Part shown: positions 3,001 through 64,000 of the stretch, piece after piece | Numbering within the stretch: the first letter of the stretch is position 1 | How the letters are laid out: every line of letters starts with the position of its first letter | Assembly: GCA_965114645.1 (NCBI GenBank) | Contig: CBCOZL010000018.1 | Coordinates: forward strand, 1,981-65,980 | DNA: 64,000 bases | Source of the DNA: an uncultured Lachnospiraceae bacterium | Lineage (GTDB): Bacteria > Bacillota > Clostridia > Lachnospirales > Lachnospiraceae | Direction of reading: 5' to 3' | The notes under the pieces: model-generated | Told to the model about the DNA's origin: nothing | The model's input: the letters and a program-made list of their open reading frames with translations, nothing else | Databases searched by the model: none | Program-made: the position numbers and the translations under genes

Positions 3001-5135
3001 GCCAGATCGCCGATGTGAAGGTGACCAGGGCGTACGAGAGGGACCGGGTACAGTTAAGCTATACTTCAGACGACAGCAGCATATTCACGGTGAACCGCGT
3101 GACGGGTGAGCTGCGGGCACTGCGGCCGGGTAAGGCGACGCTGACGGTACGTGCGGCGGGACTTGACAGAAAGGGCAAAGTTGTCTCAGCCAGCAAAAAG
3201 ATCACGGTGAAGGAGCTGCCTGTACCTTCCGGGGTGAAGATCACGGAGGTGAAGGATGTGAGCGCGGCGGCTGTCTGGAAGAAAAATACAAGCGGCAGAT
3301 GGATGGAAGGCTATGCCGTGCCTTACACGGATTCTCTGGGCACAAATGCCAAGGCGTGGAAAGCAGCCGTTGAGGCGGCTTTGACGGAAGCCGGGCTGGA
3401 TAACGGTATGCCGGAAAACATGACCGACGAACAGCGGCAGAACCTCGAAAAGCGATTATCCGAGACGCTTTGCCCCGGCGTGGAAGAAAAAGTAGTGGCG
3501 GCGGGCGGACTGACGGCTGACGGCAGTCTGGCGTGGGAGAGTGGACTTCACACCAATACCTATTACGTCTTCTATCTGCGGAATATGACGGAAAACGCGG
3601 TGGGGGAAGTCAGCTGTGCCGGATGGATGAGCGGCAGGATACAGACGAAGATGCCGGTGTTTACAAAAATACAGCTCACGGCTTATGGGGCGGACAAAGC
3701 GCCTGTGGCGTTCAATGACCAGGATAACAGCGGTTACATCTACACAGACCCGACAGACGGGATAATTCCGAAAGAGGTAAGGTATGAGCTGTCTGCGGCC
3801 GGCGGGTGGCAGAATGAAAAGGACATCTTTAAGAGCCCTTCCTATAAGAGCACAAACCCAAAGGTGGTCAAAGTAAGCGGTAAAGGGATGCTTAGCCTCG
3901 GCGGCCAGGCGGGAACGGCGGAAATCTATGTGACAGGTAAAGATTCCGGTGGCGCGGTCAGGGAGTCCGACAGAATCAGGATCCGGGTCGTGAAATCGCC
4001 TCAGGGGATCAAGGATAAGACGACGACGCTGACGCTGGGGCAGTCTGTTTCCGTACAGGAGCTTGTGGGCAGTGACGTGAAAGGCGCGGCGGATGCATGT
4101 AAGCTGGACAGAGTGGATCTGTCGGCTATGGTGGATGAACTGGAGCAGAAAGGAAAGGACTGCTTTGCGGTGACGTATCCGGCCGGGGAGAAGGAGAAGG
4201 CGGTGATTACCCCGTTTGCCTACCCTGTGGATGAGAAGAGCGGGGAGCGAAAGAAGGGCGCTGGTCTGTCTGTATCCGTGAAGCTGTATGATAAGACAGG
4301 AGAAGGAAGGCAGCTCGTCGATACGAAGAATGCGGTCATCAAGGTGAACGACATGTCCGTACCGGCGGTCAGCAAAGTGGCTGCGCTTGACACTGCCGTG
4401 GAAATCACTTTCAAGCCAAACGCTGTGGTGCAGGAGATCAACGGAGCACGGTATTATTACACACTGACACTGACGAATAAGAATACAGGGGAGTCAAAGA
4501 CTTACCGCGCAGGCAGTGCGGGAACGGACGGCAGTGTGCCGGAAGGCATATTTACTTATGTGGAGGAGCCGGACAAAAAAGGGCAGAAGCTCTATCGCTG
4601 TCAAATAAGTGGACTGGCGTCAGCAACGGGGTATGAAGCGGTTGTTACGGCTCATTATCTGGCGGAATCTGCCGGGAATGGAACAAAGGCGGCTCTCGAG
4701 GCAAAGAAGGACTCCGGCGTGAAGAAATTTACGACCTTAAAGCCTGTGATTGCGGCACAGAACAGCATGAAGGTATCTCTTGTGAGCATGTCAGAACTGT
4801 GGGCGGATGCCAATGCTGTGGGCATGGAAATTACCCATGACGAGACGGTTGCGCTGGCGAACGGGCAAACCTATGTGTTGTTTGCACAGATCGACGACTA
4901 TGACAGAATCATGGGCACGGACAGTATCAAGTGGAGCGTGGTCTCCGATCCGAAGGGAGCGGCTGTGATCAAGGCGTCCTCCGACAGTTATACGGCGAAG
5001 CTTACGCTTGACAGATGCGGCACGGTTAAAGTGCAGGCGGTGTCTTCATTGTCGAAAAAGGTAGTGTGCAGTTTTACGGTAGAAGTGAAGCCTTATCAGT
5101 CCAATACCAGCAGTGCGCAGGCGGGAGGAAACTAG
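3..5135 (+). CDS. Large multidomain surface protein, 5'-truncated by the window edge (LRR tail, InlB B-repeat-like, FN3/Ig-like domains, transglutaminase-like domain)
   Basis: The frame is open from base 3 (QAFFDCS-MKHLYV, resembling the end of a BspA-type LRR region), so ATG 24 is probably internal. GKYFGGWY...DTRLTAKW resembles a Listeria-Bacteroides repeat. ATCMGFA...AHTYN...YYLDCS gives a Cys-His-Asp transglutaminase-like triad. Big_2-like YTSDDSSIFTVN and YKSTNPKVVKVS segments follow. Confidence 0.8.
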   Translation, partial: QAFFDCSMKHLYVANQTLDFSQAPLIFGSSALETIHAPKGSKAEAYAKANGYVYEEWDGTDYGKTGYTLTLDAGEGAFPQTAQSVRYTVSADRKTAVREVSIGADSVPVPDIAPALEGKYFGGWYLGNDPFVFETTALRQDTRLTAKWLEEPTAPVLQIENRSEWSAVLSWEMRMDEDLRGYCVYRADTADAEFVKITENDLSAGSVSYTDYVVEKDILKKQAYRYYIEAVYETGGTEKSVRSNEVSCNSMIYNASLIEQTDGVYVGVRLTDKDGKEVSSLVLHEGETSGELFFSLVKKDGTTVPWQEAMPAFSGSASIQCGLGLPYPVRFPLDSYGGGEEPFAYATIPVGYLYDASCTRLKGLKITAGQELNLYVGGQPGFLTAIPVIVEAAEPGVTYPSYDDKEGIVTDDLQTGLQILRDAVRNRVNDTEVYIKKSACDPSIAAYRALRDQDPSDNPSGDPRGGLIPEWVEAELYDINKGRAGMKPWEGDYAYYSMRAGSLSADLEYPDQIYGEDYYKLVLEVNQFTTTLEQEAAVDAKVKELLNGRLAGVKGKSEYERAKAVYDFVSTSMHYDNSDPVHHYAYGGLCKGKATCMGFALSFQRLSSELGLESKVIMGLDAGAHTYNLVKIRGKYYYLDCSAKKFLKGKKNFKTAPLQDRYLSTAFQTYFMAQIASDDYAAGQEPALDGIAVRALTDGEISQASGGAFTGIADRTSAKYELRDTVIQAALYDREHPLKPVYYADEDKQEYVLAFRLTVDREKFDENGTVQIFAGEADGHVFTKADSTLKDGYLDLILPIRKGDVSITIDYDTADEGKSQYEAVTYTMDFSRLVRESVRASGSVQESTDAMEETGIELSGPSISYRENDREVTVFYEAVAWSSQIRAEGIAETAGNYAVLRMSAPEAMLGTKVLSESTASSADCTLRWEKDKKYLDCLCKMEKGKENTLTIQWAGKETQTQTVILRAAQDCYMETDGAGMDAPKKVAFNGLPSTLYVGQSQIADVKVTRAYERDRVQLSYTSDDSSIFTVNRVTGELRALRPGKATLTVRAAGLDRKGKVVSASKKITVKELPVPSGVKITEVKDVSAAAVWKKNTSGRWMEGYAVPYTDSLGTNAKAWKAAVEAALTEAGLDNGMPENMTDEQRQNLEKRLSETLCPGVEEKVVAAGGLTADGSLAWESGLHTNTYYVFYLRNMTENAVGEVSCAGWMSGRIQTKMPVFTKIQLTAYGADKAPVAFNDQDNSGYIYTDPTDGIIPKEVRYELSAAGGWQNEKDIFKSPSYKSTNPKVVKVSGKGMLSLGGQAGTAEIYVTGKDSGGAVRESDRIRIRVVKSPQGIKDKTTTLTLGQSVSVQELVGSDVKGAADACKLDRVDLSAMVDELEQKGKDCFAVTYPAGEKEKAVITPFAYPVDEKSGERKKGAGLSVSVKLYDKTGEGRQLVDTKNAVIKVNDMSVPAVSKVAALDTAVEITFKPNAVVQEINGARYYYTLTLTNKNTGESKTYRAGSAGTDGSVPEGIFTYVEEPDKKGQKLYRCQISGLASATGYEAVVTAHYLAESAGNGTKAALEAKKDSGVKKFTTLKPVIAAQNSMKVSLVSMSELWADANAVGMEITHDETVALANGQTYVLFAQIDDYDRIMGTDSIKWSVVSDPKGAAVIKASSDSYTAKLTLDRCGTVKVQAVSSLSKKVVCSFTVEVKPYQSNTSSAQAGGN

Positions 5136-58427: not shown

Positions 58428-59072
58428 TTATAAAAGTTCCATTATTTTTAATGCAGGGAAAGTTTGATCTGTGTTCATGAGACCTTTAATAATATAATTG
58501 TGTTGTTCGTTGTATTTATCTAAACAAGTCATTTCCATATACAGTTCAAACCCATTATTGATAACAGGATTGAATATGTCTATGCCCTTTGTTGAATCTG
58601 CAAAAAGATAGTCAATGCTATATGTTTTTTGTGCTATCCATTGAGGTTCTTTTTCTGGATTCAGAATTTTAATGTTAAAGAATTTGAGTTCCTGTGCATT
58701 ATTTTCAGAGACATTTGATATTTTGAGGCATAAATTTTGTGCATTGCCGCCATGACTGCCATTAGCGACAATAGTGAATCTTGGCATATTGCTTTCATGT
58801 TCTCTTTGCTCCAATAGTTCAGCTCTTTTGTCTGATTCCTGCTTGATGATTTGATTTTGATATAAGGATAAGGCACCCAAAATGACTGTTCCTAAAAATG
58901 CAAGAATTGAACCATAGTAACTCAATAATTCTCCTGCAGACCATTCAGCAACAAAAAAGTCAATGTTTGAATGAAGTTTAAACAGAATATGTATGATTAA
59001 GGGTACTCCAAAGATAATCATAAAAATAATAAATGCAATCAGCTTTTTATGTTTTTTCATCCAATCAAACAC
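58428..59072 (-). CDS. Hypothetical membrane-anchored protein (two N-terminal TM segments, soluble C-terminal domain)
   Basis: 214-aa ORF in AT-rich DNA; hydrophobic LIAFIIFMIIFGVPLII and YYGSILAFLGTVILGALSLYQN. Confidence 0.75.
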   Translation of the reverse strand: MFDWMKKHKKLIAFIIFMIIFGVPLIIHILFKLHSNIDFFVAEWSAGELLSYYGSILAFLGTVILGALSLYQNQIIKQESDKRAELLEQREHESNMPRFTIVANGSHGGNAQNLCLKISNVSENNAQELKFFNIKILNPEKEPQWIAQKTYSIDYLFADSTKGIDIFNPVINNGFELYMEMTCLDKYNEQHNYIIKGLMNTDQTFPALKIMELL

Positions 59073-59086
59073 AATAAATCTCCCCT

Positions 59087-60124
59087 TTATATAAATTCAT
59101 AGCCAAGCATCACATTGATTAAGTTGTAATCAATACCTGCATCTATGTATCGGCACACATCATAATCATAAATATCTGAATTTGGAAACAGTTTAAATGG
59201 GCTTTTTATGGTATATCCATTAAAATTCAGGAACTTCTCTATTTCGTTGGAGGTTGGCAAGCCTAAAAAGAATGCCATCTGTAAATAAAAATGTCTTTCC
59301 TTTACAAATTTCTTCTTAGTTGCTTTCTTATAATCAAACCATGAGTTACCTGTTAGCCCTTTTGCTGTCAGATATGAGGTAAATGTAACTCTTCTGTTAT
59401 CTTTGATGATGAAGAAATCCCTAAAATCTACAGTGCTGTCATTTTGAAGTGTGGTAAATATATTGTCGGTAATTCCTCTCAGCATATCAAAACGTTCTTT
59501 ATTGGTTTTCTTTTGTTTTAAGGTTTTATTTAGAGCTTCTGTGTCGTAACCCACAAGATCATAATTGATATAGTAATAAAACTTTTCCCTTGCTTTGACA
59601 AGTGCCACAACTGTATTTGTGAAGTTGTTTTGTAATGCATCTACTTTATGGGTAGAACTGTGTATCTGTGTTACATTAGCAGTATCATACAAGGCTGTGA
59701 GTTTCTTATATTTTTCAGTGTAATCTTCAATAAGTTCAATTCTCTTTTTGATTGTGTTTATGTATATTTTTCTCTTATTGTTTGAAGCATTCAGGGCATC
59801 ATACTCATTATCGAAGCCATAAGCAGAAAGAAATTCATCAAGGCTCATATTGTAGATAACAAGGTCATTGATAAGAGGCTCGTATTTGCCCCAGATTTCA
59901 TCTTTTAAGTCTTCACATAGAAAATTATACCCTGCAACAGAAAACGGCATATTTGCCAATCTAAAGGCTCTCAGGACATCATAAAAGCACTCTTCTTTGT
60001 CGAGTCCTATCTTAAATACAGAATTGACAAGCGAATTCAGTGCAGCATAGTTTTCGGTGTATATGTAGTTGGCAGCATCTATATTAATATCTTGAAGTTC
60101 CCGTAAAATCTCCTGTTTTGTCAT
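59087..60124 (-). CDS. Hypothetical protein with possible degenerate XRE-like C-terminal domain
   Basis: 345-aa ORF; C-terminal YLQMAFFLGL...EIEKFL..NGY...D...RYID.G..Y..IN.ML resembles clostridial XRE-like modules. Confidence 0.65.
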   Translation of the reverse strand: MTKQEILRELQDINIDAANYIYTENYAALNSLVNSVFKIGLDKEECFYDVLRAFRLANMPFSVAGYNFLCEDLKDEIWGKYEPLINDLVIYNMSLDEFLSAYGFDNEYDALNASNNKRKIYINTIKKRIELIEDYTEKYKKLTALYDTANVTQIHSSTHKVDALQNNFTNTVVALVKAREKFYYYINYDLVGYDTEALNKTLKQKKTNKERFDMLRGITDNIFTTLQNDSTVDFRDFFIIKDNRRVTFTSYLTAKGLTGNSWFDYKKATKKKFVKERHFYLQMAFFLGLPTSNEIEKFLNFNGYTIKSPFKLFPNSDIYDYDVCRYIDAGIDYNLINVMLGYEFI

Positions 60125-60305
60125 ACAAACCTCTTTATTGTAAGGGAATTTCCCTATAAATTATCTCCTCAAAGAAGAAAACTACAGTAATAATATATCA
60201 TAAGTCAGGAATGTTGGCATTAAAAATATTTTCAAACTGAATACCCGTAATGATTAGAAGAGAGTATTTTTGACTTAAAATTGCAGAAACGAAAGGGGTG
60301 ATTTC

Positions 60306-60902
60306 ATGCACATTAAGAAATTTTATCCGAAAGATGAAAGATTCTTCAAGGTACTTGCAACTGCAGGAAATATCAGAAGCATAGATGCGCATAAAATTGA
60401 TATTTCTGATACACGGCTTAAAAATATGATGAAAGACAATCTGATAAAGGAAGTTAGCTATGTGAATCCAAAACACAAAGAAGTGGAAAGCTGTAAAAGT
60501 TACTGTTTTACCGATAAGGGTAAAAAGTTCATAAATCAGAAATATGGAATAGACAGGACTCAATCGCCTGCTGCAATCAAGCATAACTGCAAGGTAGCTG
60601 AAACAATCTGTTCTCTGCAAAAGAGGGAAATTGATTCCATCAAGCCTGAATGGGAAGTAAGGGATCAAATGAAAGAGTCAATTGAAAACTTCAGAGATCA
60701 GGGAGAAATAGACAGATATGATGAATATATGGAGATGTTGAGAGAGCAGCAGTTATCCGCAATAGATTTTACATACATAAATATGCAAGGAATAGAATGC
60801 GGAATTGAAGTTACGACAAACAGTTATTCAGACGGTGACATAGCAGGAAAAGAACTCTGTTCAGAAATAATTAATGTGCCTGTGAGCTATGTCAGTGCAT
60901 AA
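60306..60902 (+). CDS. Replication-relaxation-like protein (winged helix + PD-(D/E)XK-type nuclease)
   Basis: YCFTDKGKKFI wing, AIKHNCKVAE His motif, AIDFTY...GIEVT...K nuclease-like motif; RBS AAAGGGGTG. Confidence 0.6.
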   Translation: MHIKKFYPKDERFFKVLATAGNIRSIDAHKIDISDTRLKNMMKDNLIKEVSYVNPKHKEVESCKSYCFTDKGKKFINQKYGIDRTQSPAAIKHNCKVAETICSLQKREIDSIKPEWEVRDQMKESIENFRDQGEIDRYDEYMEMLREQQLSAIDFTYINMQGIECGIEVTTNSYSDGDIAGKELCSEIINVPVSYVSA

Positions 60903-60929
60903 AAAATACTCCCATCATATGATGGGAGT
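60903..60929 (-). terminator. Terminator (perfect 22-bp palindrome plus U-tract)
   Basis: ACTCCCATCATATGATGGGAGT followed by ATTTTTT on the minus strand. Confidence 0.85.
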
Positions 60930-61010
60930 TTCCAATGAGTCGCCAAACTCATTATAACTGATAAATAAATCCGAATGACCGCCAAGCCATTCATAACTGT
61001 ACCTTTGTTT
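60903..61010 (-). ncRNA. Candidate small RNA with two covarying hairpin repeats, downstream of the PemK/MazF gene
   Basis: Own promoter (61017-61046), two 30-nt CAGUUAU-stem-UUGGCG-stem-GGA repeats (39-nt period), terminator at 60903-60929; no ORF. Confidence 0.7.
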
Positions 61011-61016
61011 ACAACA

Positions 61017-61046
61017 AGTGTACCACTTTAATATATGCAATGTCAA
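61017..61046 (-). promoter_or_regulatory. Sigma-A promoter for the candidate sRNA
   Basis: TTGACA-N18-TACACT with TGn extension, starting a few nt after the toxin stop codon. Confidence 0.7.
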
Positions 61047-61051
61047 ATGTT

Positions 61052-61600
61052 TTATGCTTTGTCCTTCAGTTGTTTTTTCAAGTAGTCAATTTTGCCACTT
61101 AAAGAACTGATAATGTTGTCTTTTTTCTTTACAATATAGGACAAACCTAAAATATTCAGCAATTTTGTATCCAGTTCTGGTATTTCGGCAGATAGTTTAC
61201 ATATTTTTGCAGAAATAATCCGTTCTTTTCCGATGGTTTTAATCTGTCCTAAATCTATTGTTCCTGAAAGGGTTGCAGGCTTTCCGTTAGGATCAGTGTA
61301 AGAATAGATGCCAGTAATAGGAATTTGGATGTCAGGTATTGTTGCAGGACTTGTGGATATAATGGCACAAGTGAATACTGGAGAGGAAATATTATATGAA
61401 TTGGACTGTATGACAACGACAGGGCGTATTTTGTTTTCTTCGCTCCCAACATTCTCTCCCAAATCAACAAAAAATACTTCGCCTCTTTTGACAGTCCAAC
61501 TTCGCTGATGCCGTTTTCCGACATAATAATATAGTTTTTTAGAATCCCATGAATTGATCCGCTGTGCTTTGCCTAATAATTGTTTTTCTTCGTTTGTCAA
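61052..61600 (-). CDS. PemK/MazF-family endoribonuclease with N- and C-terminal extensions, no protein antitoxin
   Basis: KRGEVFFVDLGENVGSEENKIRPVVVIQ and LGQIKTIGKERI motifs; TTG start after GGAGG. Confidence 0.9.
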   Translation of the reverse strand: MTNEEKQLLGKAQRINSWDSKKLYYYVGKRHQRSWTVKRGEVFFVDLGENVGSEENKIRPVVVIQSNSYNISSPVFTCAIISTSPATIPDIQIPITGIYSYTDPNGKPATLSGTIDLGQIKTIGKERIISAKICKLSAEIPELDTKLLNILGLSYIVKKKDNIISSLSGKIDYLKKQLKDKA

Positions 61601-61621
61601 ATTACACCTCCGTTTTTACGC

Positions 61622-61650
61622 ATTATAGCATATGGGGAACAATTTGTCAC
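61622..61650 (-). promoter_or_regulatory. Sigma-A promoter of the PemK/MazF gene
   Basis: GTGACA-N17-TATAAT with TGn extension, directly upstream of the RBS. Confidence 0.78.
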
Positions 61651-61715
61651 TTATTGAATTTTTTGTGGATGAAAGTCGGCATATTCGATTAAACACGAAA
61701 AACCCTTAATTTTCT

Positions 61716-61727
61716 GGGGGGGGGGGG
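61716..61727 (+). repeat. G12 homopolymer upstream of the adhesin gene
   Basis: Twelve consecutive G in otherwise AT-rich intergenic DNA. Confidence 0.9.
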
Positions 61728-61808: not shown

Positions 61809-64000
61809 ATGAATAAGAAAATTTTATCTGTTTTACTTTGTGGTTCTTTACTGTTTGGAACAGTTTTTGCGAATGCTGTTTCTATAAATTTTGAAGAATT
61901 GGAAACAGATAATGTTTCTATCACATATGAAGAACTTCAAGCAGAAGAAGTTATAACAGAAGAATCTGTTAGACAAGATATTGTTTCCCCTTTGGCAACT
62001 GAAATAGAAGAAATGGCGATTGAACCAGATTCATATATACAAACTTATGTGTCTACTCCCTTTGACATTGAATTAGCTGCTAATTCGGAAGGGTATGGTT
62101 CAGTATCACTTGATTGGAGCGATTATGATTATAAAGATAAAAATTTTAAAGTATACAAATCTGATGATGGTGGAATTACTTATGAAACAATTGGAATAGA
62201 TTATACTTTGGTTGATGAAGTAAAATGTTTACAAATTTATCCTATATCCAATGCATCAAATCAGCTTAAAACTTGGATGGAATCAAATGGATATGGAAAA
62301 GGAATTATAAAAATTGATTCAGTTTATATAGATACTTTTAATGCAAATCCTGATGCATATTTAAAGGATTCAAATGGTAACTATAAGTATGATGTAATTT
62401 TCTTTGGAACTTGGGATGCTAATAATCAAAAAGATTTAACTGTTTTATCTGTTCAAGCAACTGCAAATTACATAAAATCAGGAAGAGGATGTATATTTGG
62501 ACACGATACAATATTATATACTAATGGATATAACGGAAAAGATTTACCAAATTTTAGATCTCTTGCTCCATATGTAAATATAACTTTCAATGATTGTTGG
62601 TGGCAACAAAAAATAGTAAATACAACTACTAAAGTAAAAATTGTTAAAATGGGTCTGTTTACGAATTATCCGTGGAATATTGGAGGAATGGGAACTATTT
62701 TAACTATACCTGCTGCACATAATGTAGGACAAACTGCAAATGGTAAAGTTTGGTTAACTTTTGTAAATACAACACTAAATCCAGGTGGAGATATAAATAA
62801 TTTTTATATGACAACTTATAATAACGGCGCTCAAATTATGACAGGACATTCTTCAGGCCAAGCAACAACTGATGAACAAAAAATTCTTGCTAATCTAATT
62901 TTTTACTGCAATCAGTTAATTTTTGATACCTACCATTCAAAAGACAGTTCTGCTCAAGACTTTGCTAATCCAAATGCTCCTGAATTAAATGTATTAGGTT
63001 CTAATTTTACTTGGTCTGCAACTGACAACGGTTCTGTTTATCATTATTATGTAGAAAGTTTTGATAAAAATGATACAACTGAAACAGGGTTACTTGATAG
63101 ATCGGTAACGAAGAGCTTAACTGTTACAACAGGAATAAGAAAATATCGTTATATCTTAGACAATAGTGCAAGTACAACTGTCACTCTCTCTAATGGAACA
63201 GAAACAACTGCTACAAGTATTCCTGAAAACAGAAGTTATAATTATCTCCATGTGGCAGCGATTGATGGTGCAGGCAATTTAGGACCTACAGCAACAGTGG
63301 AAATCCCTAAAATCGCAAATGTAACGGTAAATCACTACAAAATGAATTTAGATGGAAGTACTTATACATTAGCGGAAACTGCTACTGAAACAGGAACAAT
63401 CGGAAGCAATGCAACACCTTCAGTAAAGACTTATACAGGTTTTACATCTCCCGAAGTACAGACAAAAACTATTGTTTCAGGTGGAATTACTATTGATTAT
63501 TATTATACAAGAAATAAGTATGCAGTTACTTATATAGATAAAACTCCAGATGGCAAGGAAATAGGAAGGACTACTAAACAGGTATTTTATGATGTTGATG
63601 TAAGAGGATCGGATATTGGAAAATCTGCATCCGACAATGCTTATTATCCGCAATACAGATATGTGAGTGATACAACTGCAAAGGTGACAACAAGCGGTGC
63701 AACTGTATTCAGAGAATTTGAATTCTGTGAAACAGAAAAAGATTCACATCTTACTTGGAATGATAACAATAATGCAGATAAGCTAAGACCTGAAAAGTAT
63801 ACACTAAAGCTAAAACAGAATGGGGTTGTTATAGACGAAGTAGAATTACCATCCGATCAAACAGATTACACTTTTGATCATTTACCAAAATATGATGAAA
63901 ACGGAAATCCTTATCAATATGAAATTGAAACGATTGTTTCTGATAGATATAAAGCAGAATATGGAGAAGATGGGAGTTTAATCTTCCAAGACTATAAACC
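61809..64000 (+). CDS. Large secreted surface protein/adhesin (DUF5057-like domain, MucBP-like and Cna-B-like modules), 3'-truncated by the window edge
   Basis: Not in the ORF track because it has no stop in the window. Hand translation is open from ATG 61809 to the end: signal peptide MNKKILSVLLCGSLLFGTVFANA; LKTWME..GYGKG...YKYDVIFFGTWD...GRG.IFGHDT; VTVNHYKMNLDG...YTGF...YYYTRN; WNDNNNADKLRPE...LPKYDENG..YQY. Confidence 0.88.
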   Translation, partial: MNKKILSVLLCGSLLFGTVFANAVSINFEELETDNVSITYEELQAEEVITEESVRQDIVSPLATEIEEMAIEPDSYIQTYVSTPFDIELAANSEGYGSVSLDWSDYDYKDKNFKVYKSDDGGITYETIGIDYTLVDEVKCLQIYPISNASNQLKTWMESNGYGKGIIKIDSVYIDTFNANPDAYLKDSNGNYKYDVIFFGTWDANNQKDLTVLSVQATANYIKSGRGCIFGHDTILYTNGYNGKDLPNFRSLAPYVNITFNDCWWQQKIVNTTTKVKIVKMGLFTNYPWNIGGMGTILTIPAAHNVGQTANGKVWLTFVNTTLNPGGDINNFYMTTYNNGAQIMTGHSSGQATTDEQKILANLIFYCNQLIFDTYHSKDSSAQDFANPNAPELNVLGSNFTWSATDNGSVYHYYVESFDKNDTTETGLLDRSVTKSLTVTTGIRKYRYILDNSASTTVTLSNGTETTATSIPENRSYNYLHVAAIDGAGNLGPTATVEIPKIANVTVNHYKMNLDGSTYTLAETATETGTIGSNATPSVKTYTGFTSPEVQTKTIVSGGITIDYYYTRNKYAVTYIDKTPDGKEIGRTTKQVFYDVDVRGSDIGKSASDNAYYPQYRYVSDTTAKVTTSGATVFREFEFCETEKDSHLTWNDNNNADKLRPEKYTLKLKQNGVVIDEVELPSDQTDYTFDHLPKYDENGNPYQYEIETIVSDRYKAEYGEDGSLIFQDYK

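Follow-up and report, generated by a model that had tools for sequence, protein, structure and literature searches.

A gene for a long PemK/MazF-type protein lies on the minus strand of contig CBCOZL010000018.1 from an uncultured Lachnospiraceae bacterium, within the stretch of 64,000 nucleotides (nt) analysed here (the window, in whose numbering coordinates are given unless a locus is named), and is followed directly by a predicted non-coding RNA (ncRNA) that carries two similar hairpin units. The RNA and the protein are almost certainly functionally coupled. As judged from sequence comparison, the MazF-type toxin and the downstream RNA probably constitute a type III-like toxin–antitoxin module with an inverted gene order, in which the RNA would neutralise the toxin directly. 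The module consists of the following elements.

61622..61650, minus strand: toxin promoter P1, GTGACA-17 nt-TATAAT, with a TG-extended −10 box (11/12 consensus matches)
61607..61611, minus strand: ribosome-binding site (RBS) GGAGG, 6 nt 5' of the TTG start codon (read from the sequence)
61052..61600, minus strand: long PemK/MazF-type endoribonuclease gene, 182 amino acids (aa), TTG start (open reading frame, ORF, and Pfam PF02452)
61017..61046, minus strand: internal promoter P2, TTGACA-18 nt-TACACT, TG-extended, beginning 5 nt past the toxin stop codon (10/12 matches)
60900..61010, minus strand: predicted ncRNA of ~110 nt, from the putative start site to the U-run of the terminator (fold, covariance model)
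60971..61000, minus strand: repeat unit 1, ACAGUUAU, with an 8-bp stem (60992-60985/60980-60973), a UGGC loop (60984-60981) and GG (fold, alignment)
60932..60961, minus strand: repeat unit 2, UCAGUUAU, with an 8-bp stem (60953-60946/60941-60934), a UGGC loop (60945-60942) and GG (fold, alignment)
60901..60929, minus strand: intrinsic terminator with a 9-bp G+C-rich stem (60929..60908), a 4-nt loop and a U-run (terminator scan)

A sequence-only reading of the locus had proposed this succession of promoter, RBS, ORF, second promoter, hairpins and terminator, and every one of these elements was found in its place. P1 and P2 are the best two of 13 promoter-like sites in a 1.9-kb scan, in which 7.7 such sites were expected. 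Because the −10 box of P1 (61622) is separated from the start codon (61600) by only 21 nt, no ORF fits between P1 and the toxin gene, in agreement with the claim of the same reading that this interval holds no antitoxin ORF. The toxin gene is solitary, because its upstream neighbour, a gene for a secreted Cna_B-domain surface protein with its ATG at 61809, is divergent and its downstream neighbour (60306..60902) is convergent. There is no terminator between the toxin ORF and the RNA, the sole terminator being located 3' of the RNA, and therefore a toxin mRNA that reads through ends in the RNA.

Structure, covariation and linkage of the RNA

A 131-nt stretch folds into the two hairpins and the terminator with a minimum free energy of −38.4 kcal/mol (z = −3.75), and none of 200 shuffled sequences folds as well. 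A scan of one genome per species in GTDB has identified 41 family loci (L001-L041; loci are referred to by such numbers below) whose proteins are 63–96% identical. Their hosts are mostly Lachnospiraceae of mouse, ruminant and human guts, and Acetivibrio ethanolgignens, Agathobacter and Asaccharospora are also represented. Two units of the form CAGWURU-stem-YUGGCR-stem-YGG, each about 39 nt long, are located 3' of the stop codon on the gene strand in all 41 loci. The RNA alignment contains 36 distinct sequences, in which the 16 base pairs give 576 stem cells; 99.5% of these cells are paired, and compensatory double changes occur in 13 of the 16 pairs (7/8 in unit 1 and 6/8 in unit 2). The observed values are reached by none of 500 shuffles, and controls in which the pairing partners are slid along the alignment pair at only 12–52%. 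Consistently, RNAalifold returns the same two hairpins, with 9 bp each, when no structure is supplied.

Only U-G, C-G and U-A occur at the Y-R pair that adjoins the loop, which indicates that each stem is 8–9 bp long and closed by a UGGC tetraloop. G-U pairs account for 112 stem cells (~19%) and become A-C mismatches on the opposite strand. Because these 112 cells pair on the gene strand alone, the orientation of the transcript is fixed. The sequence-only reading had described two look-alike hairpins in which pairing is kept although the stems differ, and had taken G-U pairing as support for the minus strand. The fold, the covariation of the stems across the family and the alignment-wide G-U cells bear out these points; the hairpins themselves stand, and only their proposed dimensions, a 7-bp stem with a 6-nt loop, have to be revised to those given above.

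A covariance model (R1) built from the 36-sequence alignment detects exactly one copy per locus in L001-L041 (79–98 bits) and none elsewhere in the 243 kb that these loci span. Its sole match in the 64-kb window is located at 61005..60928 (89 bits). Three further homologues from metagenome assemblies (contexts L187-L193), which were looked up independently, also carry the RNA with scores of 80–84 bits, so that the expected conservation of the repeats beside homologues extends from the 41 loci to these three contexts. In essentially every homologous locus there is a terminator 3' of unit 2, with a stem sequence that differs from lineage to lineage. A pattern scan for tandem units gave 6 matches in viral contigs and 98 in JGI metagenomes, of which 80 were kept; because none is upheld by the covariance model, these matches are regarded as chance.

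The promoters are conserved along with the hairpins. A (G/A)TGACA-N17-TGCTATAAT element precedes the closest homologues (L001, L002, L010, L012 and L013) even where the flanking DNA differs, and 33 of the 36 distinct loci have a TTGAC[AT]-17/18-TAnnnT element in the interval from the stop codon to unit 1, which bears out the proposal of a second promoter directly past the toxin stop. The −10 box of P2 ends 5–8 nt before ACAG in most lineages, suggesting that the primary transcript probably starts at the A of ACAG or beside it; in the subgroup to which the window belongs, the box lies about 10 nt further upstream. The RNA start site in the window is likewise a prediction from the −10 spacing. 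Contigs assembled from gut metatranscriptomes, which are assemblies and not read-level data, cover the window at flat depth and break at strain variants.

The RNA does not correspond to a known RNA family in the scans made. A cmscan against Rfam gives no relevant family in the region of the window (E<=10), the pemK motif RF02913 included, as the check proposed together with the original description of the locus had envisaged. RF02913 is a structured RNA motif that owes its name to an association with pemK genes in Firmicutes. It has no match in 20 family loci at the gathering score, in the Clostridium locus L052 (E<=10) or in the Bacillus and Brevibacillus loci described below (E<=1). The RNA thus appears distinct from RF02913 as judged by model scans, a separation that does not draw on the published description of the motif. 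Weak matches to the Rfam families nse_sRNA and MicX reflect the terminator only. No account of a hairpin-repeat RNA downstream of a PemK/MazF toxin came up in full-text literature searches, whose scope left out the supplement on the pemK motif (Weinberg 2017).

The genes that flank the module differ by lineage. The module adjoins a response-regulator and adhesin region in the window and a kinase-like gene in L010, lies between gpmI-like (phosphoglycerate-mutase-like) and eno-like (enolase-like) genes in L024 and is found beside a transposase in L187. The conserved stretch begins at P1 and ends at the terminator. Such limits of conservation would be expected of a module that is self-contained and mobile. 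No conserved protein antitoxin and no conserved upstream ORF were found across the family loci. Several loci show signs of decay.

L007: damaged toxin gene with a nonsense codon, RNA intact
L036: damaged toxin gene lacking residues 115-182, P2 −35 box lost, RNA intact
L038: damaged toxin gene truncated at about residue 161, RNA intact
L041: damaged toxin gene with a frameshift at about residue 159, RNA intact
L042: toxin remnant without the RNA

An intact toxin gene without the RNA was not found among the loci examined. This asymmetry, in which the toxin is lost and the RNA is kept, is what a toxin–antitoxin pair predicts, although the numbers are small.

Two features of the surrounding DNA in the window may be mentioned here. 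Three ORFs coding for 214, 345 and 198 aa occupy the region 58428-60902, with an RlmD-like methyltransferase gene on one side and the toxin module on the other; they match no Pfam family at the curated threshold. The 198-aa and 345-aa ORFs also adjoin the module in L002 and may form a small island with it. On the other side, a homopolymer of 12 G (61716-61727, plus strand) is located between the toxin promoter and the divergent Cna_B gene. The corresponding site has 13 C in the relative L002, and contigs from two gut runs carry a 3-nt deletion at 61715. The length of the G-tract is thus strain-variable, and the tract may act as a phase-variable spacer of the adhesin promoter.

The MazF-type protein and the proposed function of the pair

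The 182-aa ORF matches Pfam PF02452 (PemK_toxin) over residues 38-139 with E=3.3e-17 and 63.1 bits (cutoff 23.1). In NCBIfam, the MazF matches are weak and below threshold. A profile of 21 family members retrieves S. aureus MazF, B. subtilis EndoA/YdcE and B. anthracis MoxT from the Protein Data Bank (PDB) at E~1e-14, and the identity to the nearest solved relatives, S. aureus MazF and B. subtilis EndoA/YdcE, is 31–35%. Consistently, the top 50 PDB matches that Foldseek finds for the AlphaFold2 model (predicted local distance difference test score, pLDDT, of 76) are all MazF, EndoA or MoxT, with target TM-scores of 0.63–0.81. No ToxN or CptN chain is present among the PDB sequence matches or these top 50 structural matches, and Pfam gives PF02452 alone.

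Among the 21 family members, R59 is nearly invariant and S82 is invariant. In the profile alignment with S. aureus MazF, these residues fall at the positions equivalent to Arg25 and Thr48 of B. subtilis MazF, which we take to be its catalytic residues. The protein consists of an N-terminal helix of about 35 aa, the MazF core (38-139) and a C-terminal helical tail (140-181). Classical MazF toxins are about 115 aa long. Both extensions are conserved across the family and are not present in classical MazF toxins. By profile and model, the protein is a genuine MazF-type fold with family-specific additions, outside the known type III toxin families. The toxin looks competent in view of its predicted MazF fold and its conserved Arg and Ser, and endoribonuclease activity is predicted.

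The proposed mechanism of the toxin–antitoxin module is as follows. The toxin mRNA from P1 would read on through the RNA, so that each toxin message would carry one copy of the antitoxin in cis, and P2, as a strong internal promoter, would supply free RNA in excess. The RNA would bind the protein directly, with its two units engaging the two protomers of a MazF-type dimer. The leader of each unit is single-stranded and invariant, being UACAG in unit 1 and UCAG in unit 2. This (U)ACAG/UCAG-UURU leader may occupy the RNA-binding groove as a pseudo-substrate while the hairpin is held by the family-specific helical extensions. The first unit of a related RNA class in Clostridium, described below, begins with UACAU in many loci, which is the recognition sequence of the MazF toxins of B. 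subtilis and S. aureus. Should the supply of RNA drop, for instance because transcription is shut off, the element is lost or the cell is infected, the toxin set free would cut cellular RNA and growth would stop. We infer the binding, its stoichiometry, the inhibition, possible RNA processing and the trigger in the cell.

Several observations weigh against an RNA-neutralised toxin. The N- and C-terminal extensions could themselves regulate the nuclease. In one group of syntenic loci (L017-L032), the toxin gene is immediately preceded by an XRE-like ORF of 65–75 aa, and in L192 such an ORF shares 14 nt with the start of the toxin ORF; it could be a regulator or partner in its lineages. Some of the toxin lesions listed above were found in metagenome-assembled genomes and could be assembly errors. 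PADLOC, phage genomes and viral contigs give no defence or phage match, and plasmids give only 3 weak, distant matches; a role of the Lachnospiraceae class in phage defence, element maintenance or addiction is one that we only infer.

The linkage and covariation would be equally well accounted for by a dedicated RNA–protein complex that is not a toxin–antitoxin pair, in which the RNA is a substrate, guide or cofactor that the PemK-like protein processes or carries, and the complex performs another task, such as the sensing or control of other RNAs. Extensions foreign to classical MazF toxins would suit such a protein, and the wide distribution of the Clostridium gene in chromosomes could suit a housekeeping role. 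However, the catalytic Arg and Ser of MazF are conserved, the module occurs in unrelated contexts and on small plasmids in the manner of toxin–antitoxin modules, and decay removes the toxin but keeps the RNA. On balance, we consider a complex of this kind rather unlikely.

It is somewhat less probable still that a protein neutralises the toxin and the RNA is incidental, the candidates being the XRE-like ORF, an unlinked antitoxin or the toxin's own extension. Besides the position of the XRE-like ORF in L017-L032 and L192 and the operator-like palindromes in its promoter in the latter locus, an HTH_3 protein encoded 150 nt upstream of the toxin gene in L187 would fit this view. However, the XRE-like ORF was found by tblastn (E<=1) neither in the window nor in most lineages, and in L021 and L044 it stands before a gene of the ORF6N type that is not related to the toxin, so that it is neither a specific partner of the toxin nor the general antitoxin of the family. 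We therefore rejected it as a universal antitoxin. Moreover, the short distance from the −10 box to the start codon in the window leaves no room for another gene; every locus, on the other hand, has the RNA. The earlier claim of a solitary toxin without a protein antitoxin thus holds for the window and for the family as a whole, in which no such protein is conserved, and has to be qualified for the minority of lineages with an XRE-like ORF upstream. The XRE-like ORFs form a family with the motif RESTGMNRxEFCEYFxIPYxTxTxWE and no Pfam match, and the palindromes in L192 have the form TTACACAnTGTGTAA. Examples are located as follows.

L030 2730-2957: XRE-like ORF
L192 1305-1514: XRE-like ORF
L021 213-410: XRE-like ORF
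L044 1615-1842: XRE-like ORF

The RNA could also govern the expression of the toxin, either as a stabilising element of the 3' untranslated region (3'-UTR) or as a type I-like small RNA that pairs with the toxin mRNA. With no terminator in between, the toxin mRNA ends in the hairpins, and RNA-seq contigs of the Clostridium class run continuously from the ORF into the RNA. However, RNAduplex predictions against the translation-initiation region are no better than those for shuffled sequences in 14 lineages (z from −0.8 to +1.7), a 3'-UTR element would need no conserved near-consensus promoter, and two identical units with invariant single-stranded flanks and loops resemble protein-binding sites. 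Control of expression is accordingly improbable. Type I-like antisense pairing was rejected as a candidate on the missing duplex signal at the translation-initiation region and because the toxin is not a small hydrophobic peptide. A small peptide starting at the conserved AUG in CAGUUAUG was also rejected: its length ranges from 8 to 50 aa and is mostly 8, its frame is not conserved and most lineages have no Shine–Dalgarno sequence for it.

The view that the hairpins act as DNA or are generic terminators or repeat elements unrelated to the toxin, for which a terminator-like U-rich run 3' of hairpin 1 in the window's subgroup could be cited, is effectively refuted, because the linker is not conserved (GGUAAAAUUGAUU stands there in other lineages), because the G-U cells are unpaired on the other strand and could not be maintained as DNA palindromes, and because the element occurs as a single copy per locus, always 3' of the toxin gene.

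Related long PemK lineages with other RNA classes

Distant matches of the same GTDB scan (L045-L076) are PemK proteins of 196–212 aa from Clostridium and Hathewaya, which are 34–41% identical and have an N-terminal extension of about 90 aa. Their genes are followed by two units of another form, with a promoter-like site and a terminator in the loci read. The first two RNA classes compare as follows.

Class 1, Lachnospiraceae: (N)CAGWURU, 8-9-bp stem, UGGC loop
Class 2, Clostridium/Hathewaya: ACAUAC, 6-bp stem, then GAGAYUAUAU..CAUA
L052 3448-3575: RNA region of the Clostridium/Hathewaya class
L075 3452-3577: RNA region of the Clostridium/Hathewaya class

The stems of the Clostridium class are 98.9% paired with compensatory changes in 7 of 12 pairs, and they have no Rfam match. 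In pure-culture RNA-seq assemblies from several studies, contigs span the ORF and the units. Because these contigs run from the ORF through the units, the region is transcribed, at least partly together with the ORF. The contigs of L075 stop just short of the terminator stem (3551-3577), with ends at 3492 to 3551, and the depth is zero from there on.

Mobilisable 8-kb plasmids of Bacillus velezensis encode a 202-aa PemK that is annotated as a type II toxin with no annotated antitoxin. A TTGACA-17-TATACT promoter lies directly past its stop codon, followed by two repeated CAACAGAGCC-hairpin units (-GACAUUA..hairpin). In Brevibacillus (L077-L080), a 167-aa PemK-like gene directly follows a JetD-like (DUF3323/DUF2399) gene, and several AUUGAUCCC-hairpin-GUA units, about four in number and with a terminator between, are located 3' of it.

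L186 2082-2350: B. velezensis arrangement, plasmid pA, NZ_CP130609.1
L077 2917-3700: example of the Brevibacillus arrangement

A separate Rfam RNA, Bacillus-plasmid (RF01691), is present on the other strand of the B. velezensis locus (L186 2616-2671). A plasmid of Fusobacterium nucleatum (CP053469.1; L185 1489-2150) encodes a long PemK of 195 aa directly downstream of a zeta-toxin family gene; this gene is followed by one hairpin and a terminator only, not by the two-unit arrangement.

A library-wide phmmer search yields many more proteins of 170–270 aa that align across both extensions with 28–41% identity. A distinct RNA class for each toxin lineage is the pattern expected of cognate interacting partners. 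We tentatively propose, with slightly more doubt than confidence, that these loci belong to a large undescribed superfamily of RNA-neutralised long PemK/MazF toxins that share a helical N-terminal extension and have at least four lineage-specific classes of promoter-driven downstream RNA, of which classes 1–3 have two units. If so, a type II toxin fold would have come repeatedly under type III-style RNA control, in an order opposite to that of all known type III systems.

Comparison with known toxin–antitoxin systems

MazF/PemK, the paradigm of a type II toxin, is normally restrained by a protein. The module described here shares with the type II systems MazEF, PemIK and Kis-Kid the fold and family of the toxin and the conserved catalytic Arg and Ser/Thr positions. 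However, it has no upstream MazE/PemI gene, its toxin carries an extra N-terminal helix and a C-terminal helical tail of about 40 aa, and it includes a downstream RNA. RNA control by the proposed route would account for many PemK/MazF genes that are annotated as "orphan" in gut Lachnospiraceae, on small Bacillus plasmids and in Clostridium, the botulinum/sporogenes group included.

A precedent is AbiF-RCd22 of a Clostridioides difficile prophage, in which an ncRNA with two copies of a conserved motif neutralises the adjacent toxin by direct binding in cis and in trans (bioRxiv 10.1101/2025.04.15.648962). That system differs in its Abi_2/AbiD/F toxin, its RNA of the Rfam abiF motif, its prophage setting and its arrangement relative to the gene.

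In design, the module also resembles the type III systems ToxIN of Pectobacterium, CptIN of Eubacterium rectale and TenpIN of Photorhabdus, which reportedly also combine an endoribonuclease of a Kid/MazF-related fold with an adjacent tandem-repeat ncRNA, keep the RNA in excess over the toxin by a transcriptional device and have no protein antitoxin. CptI is said to be similar in having about two repeats and a Lachnospiraceae-type host. To our knowledge, RNA antitoxins of type III accompany only three toxin families, all of them arranged in the order repeats–terminator–toxin. If the proposed function is correct, the module would represent a fourth, structurally simple type III-like family. Its short modular RNA with invariant loops and flanks would make the rules of specificity and the cross-talk between classes testable, and it may provide a compact RNA-controlled growth switch.

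The module differs from type III systems in several respects. Its toxin is a canonical MazF/EndoA protein (PF02452) and falls outside the ToxN/AbiQ, CptN and TenpN families. Its units are simple 8–9-bp hairpins with a UGGC loop, whereas those of type III antitoxins are reportedly pseudoknots. Finally, its RNA lies downstream of the toxin gene, whereas type III repeats are located upstream with a terminator in between. The inverted layout relative to ToxIN that had been suggested for the window is therefore sustained, with an internal promoter that is conserved in 33 of the 36 distinct loci. An excess of RNA, which ToxIN is said to obtain from the terminator between repeats and toxin, would be obtained here from the second promoter, and the module would thus employ a second transcriptional way of keeping an antitoxin in excess over its toxin.

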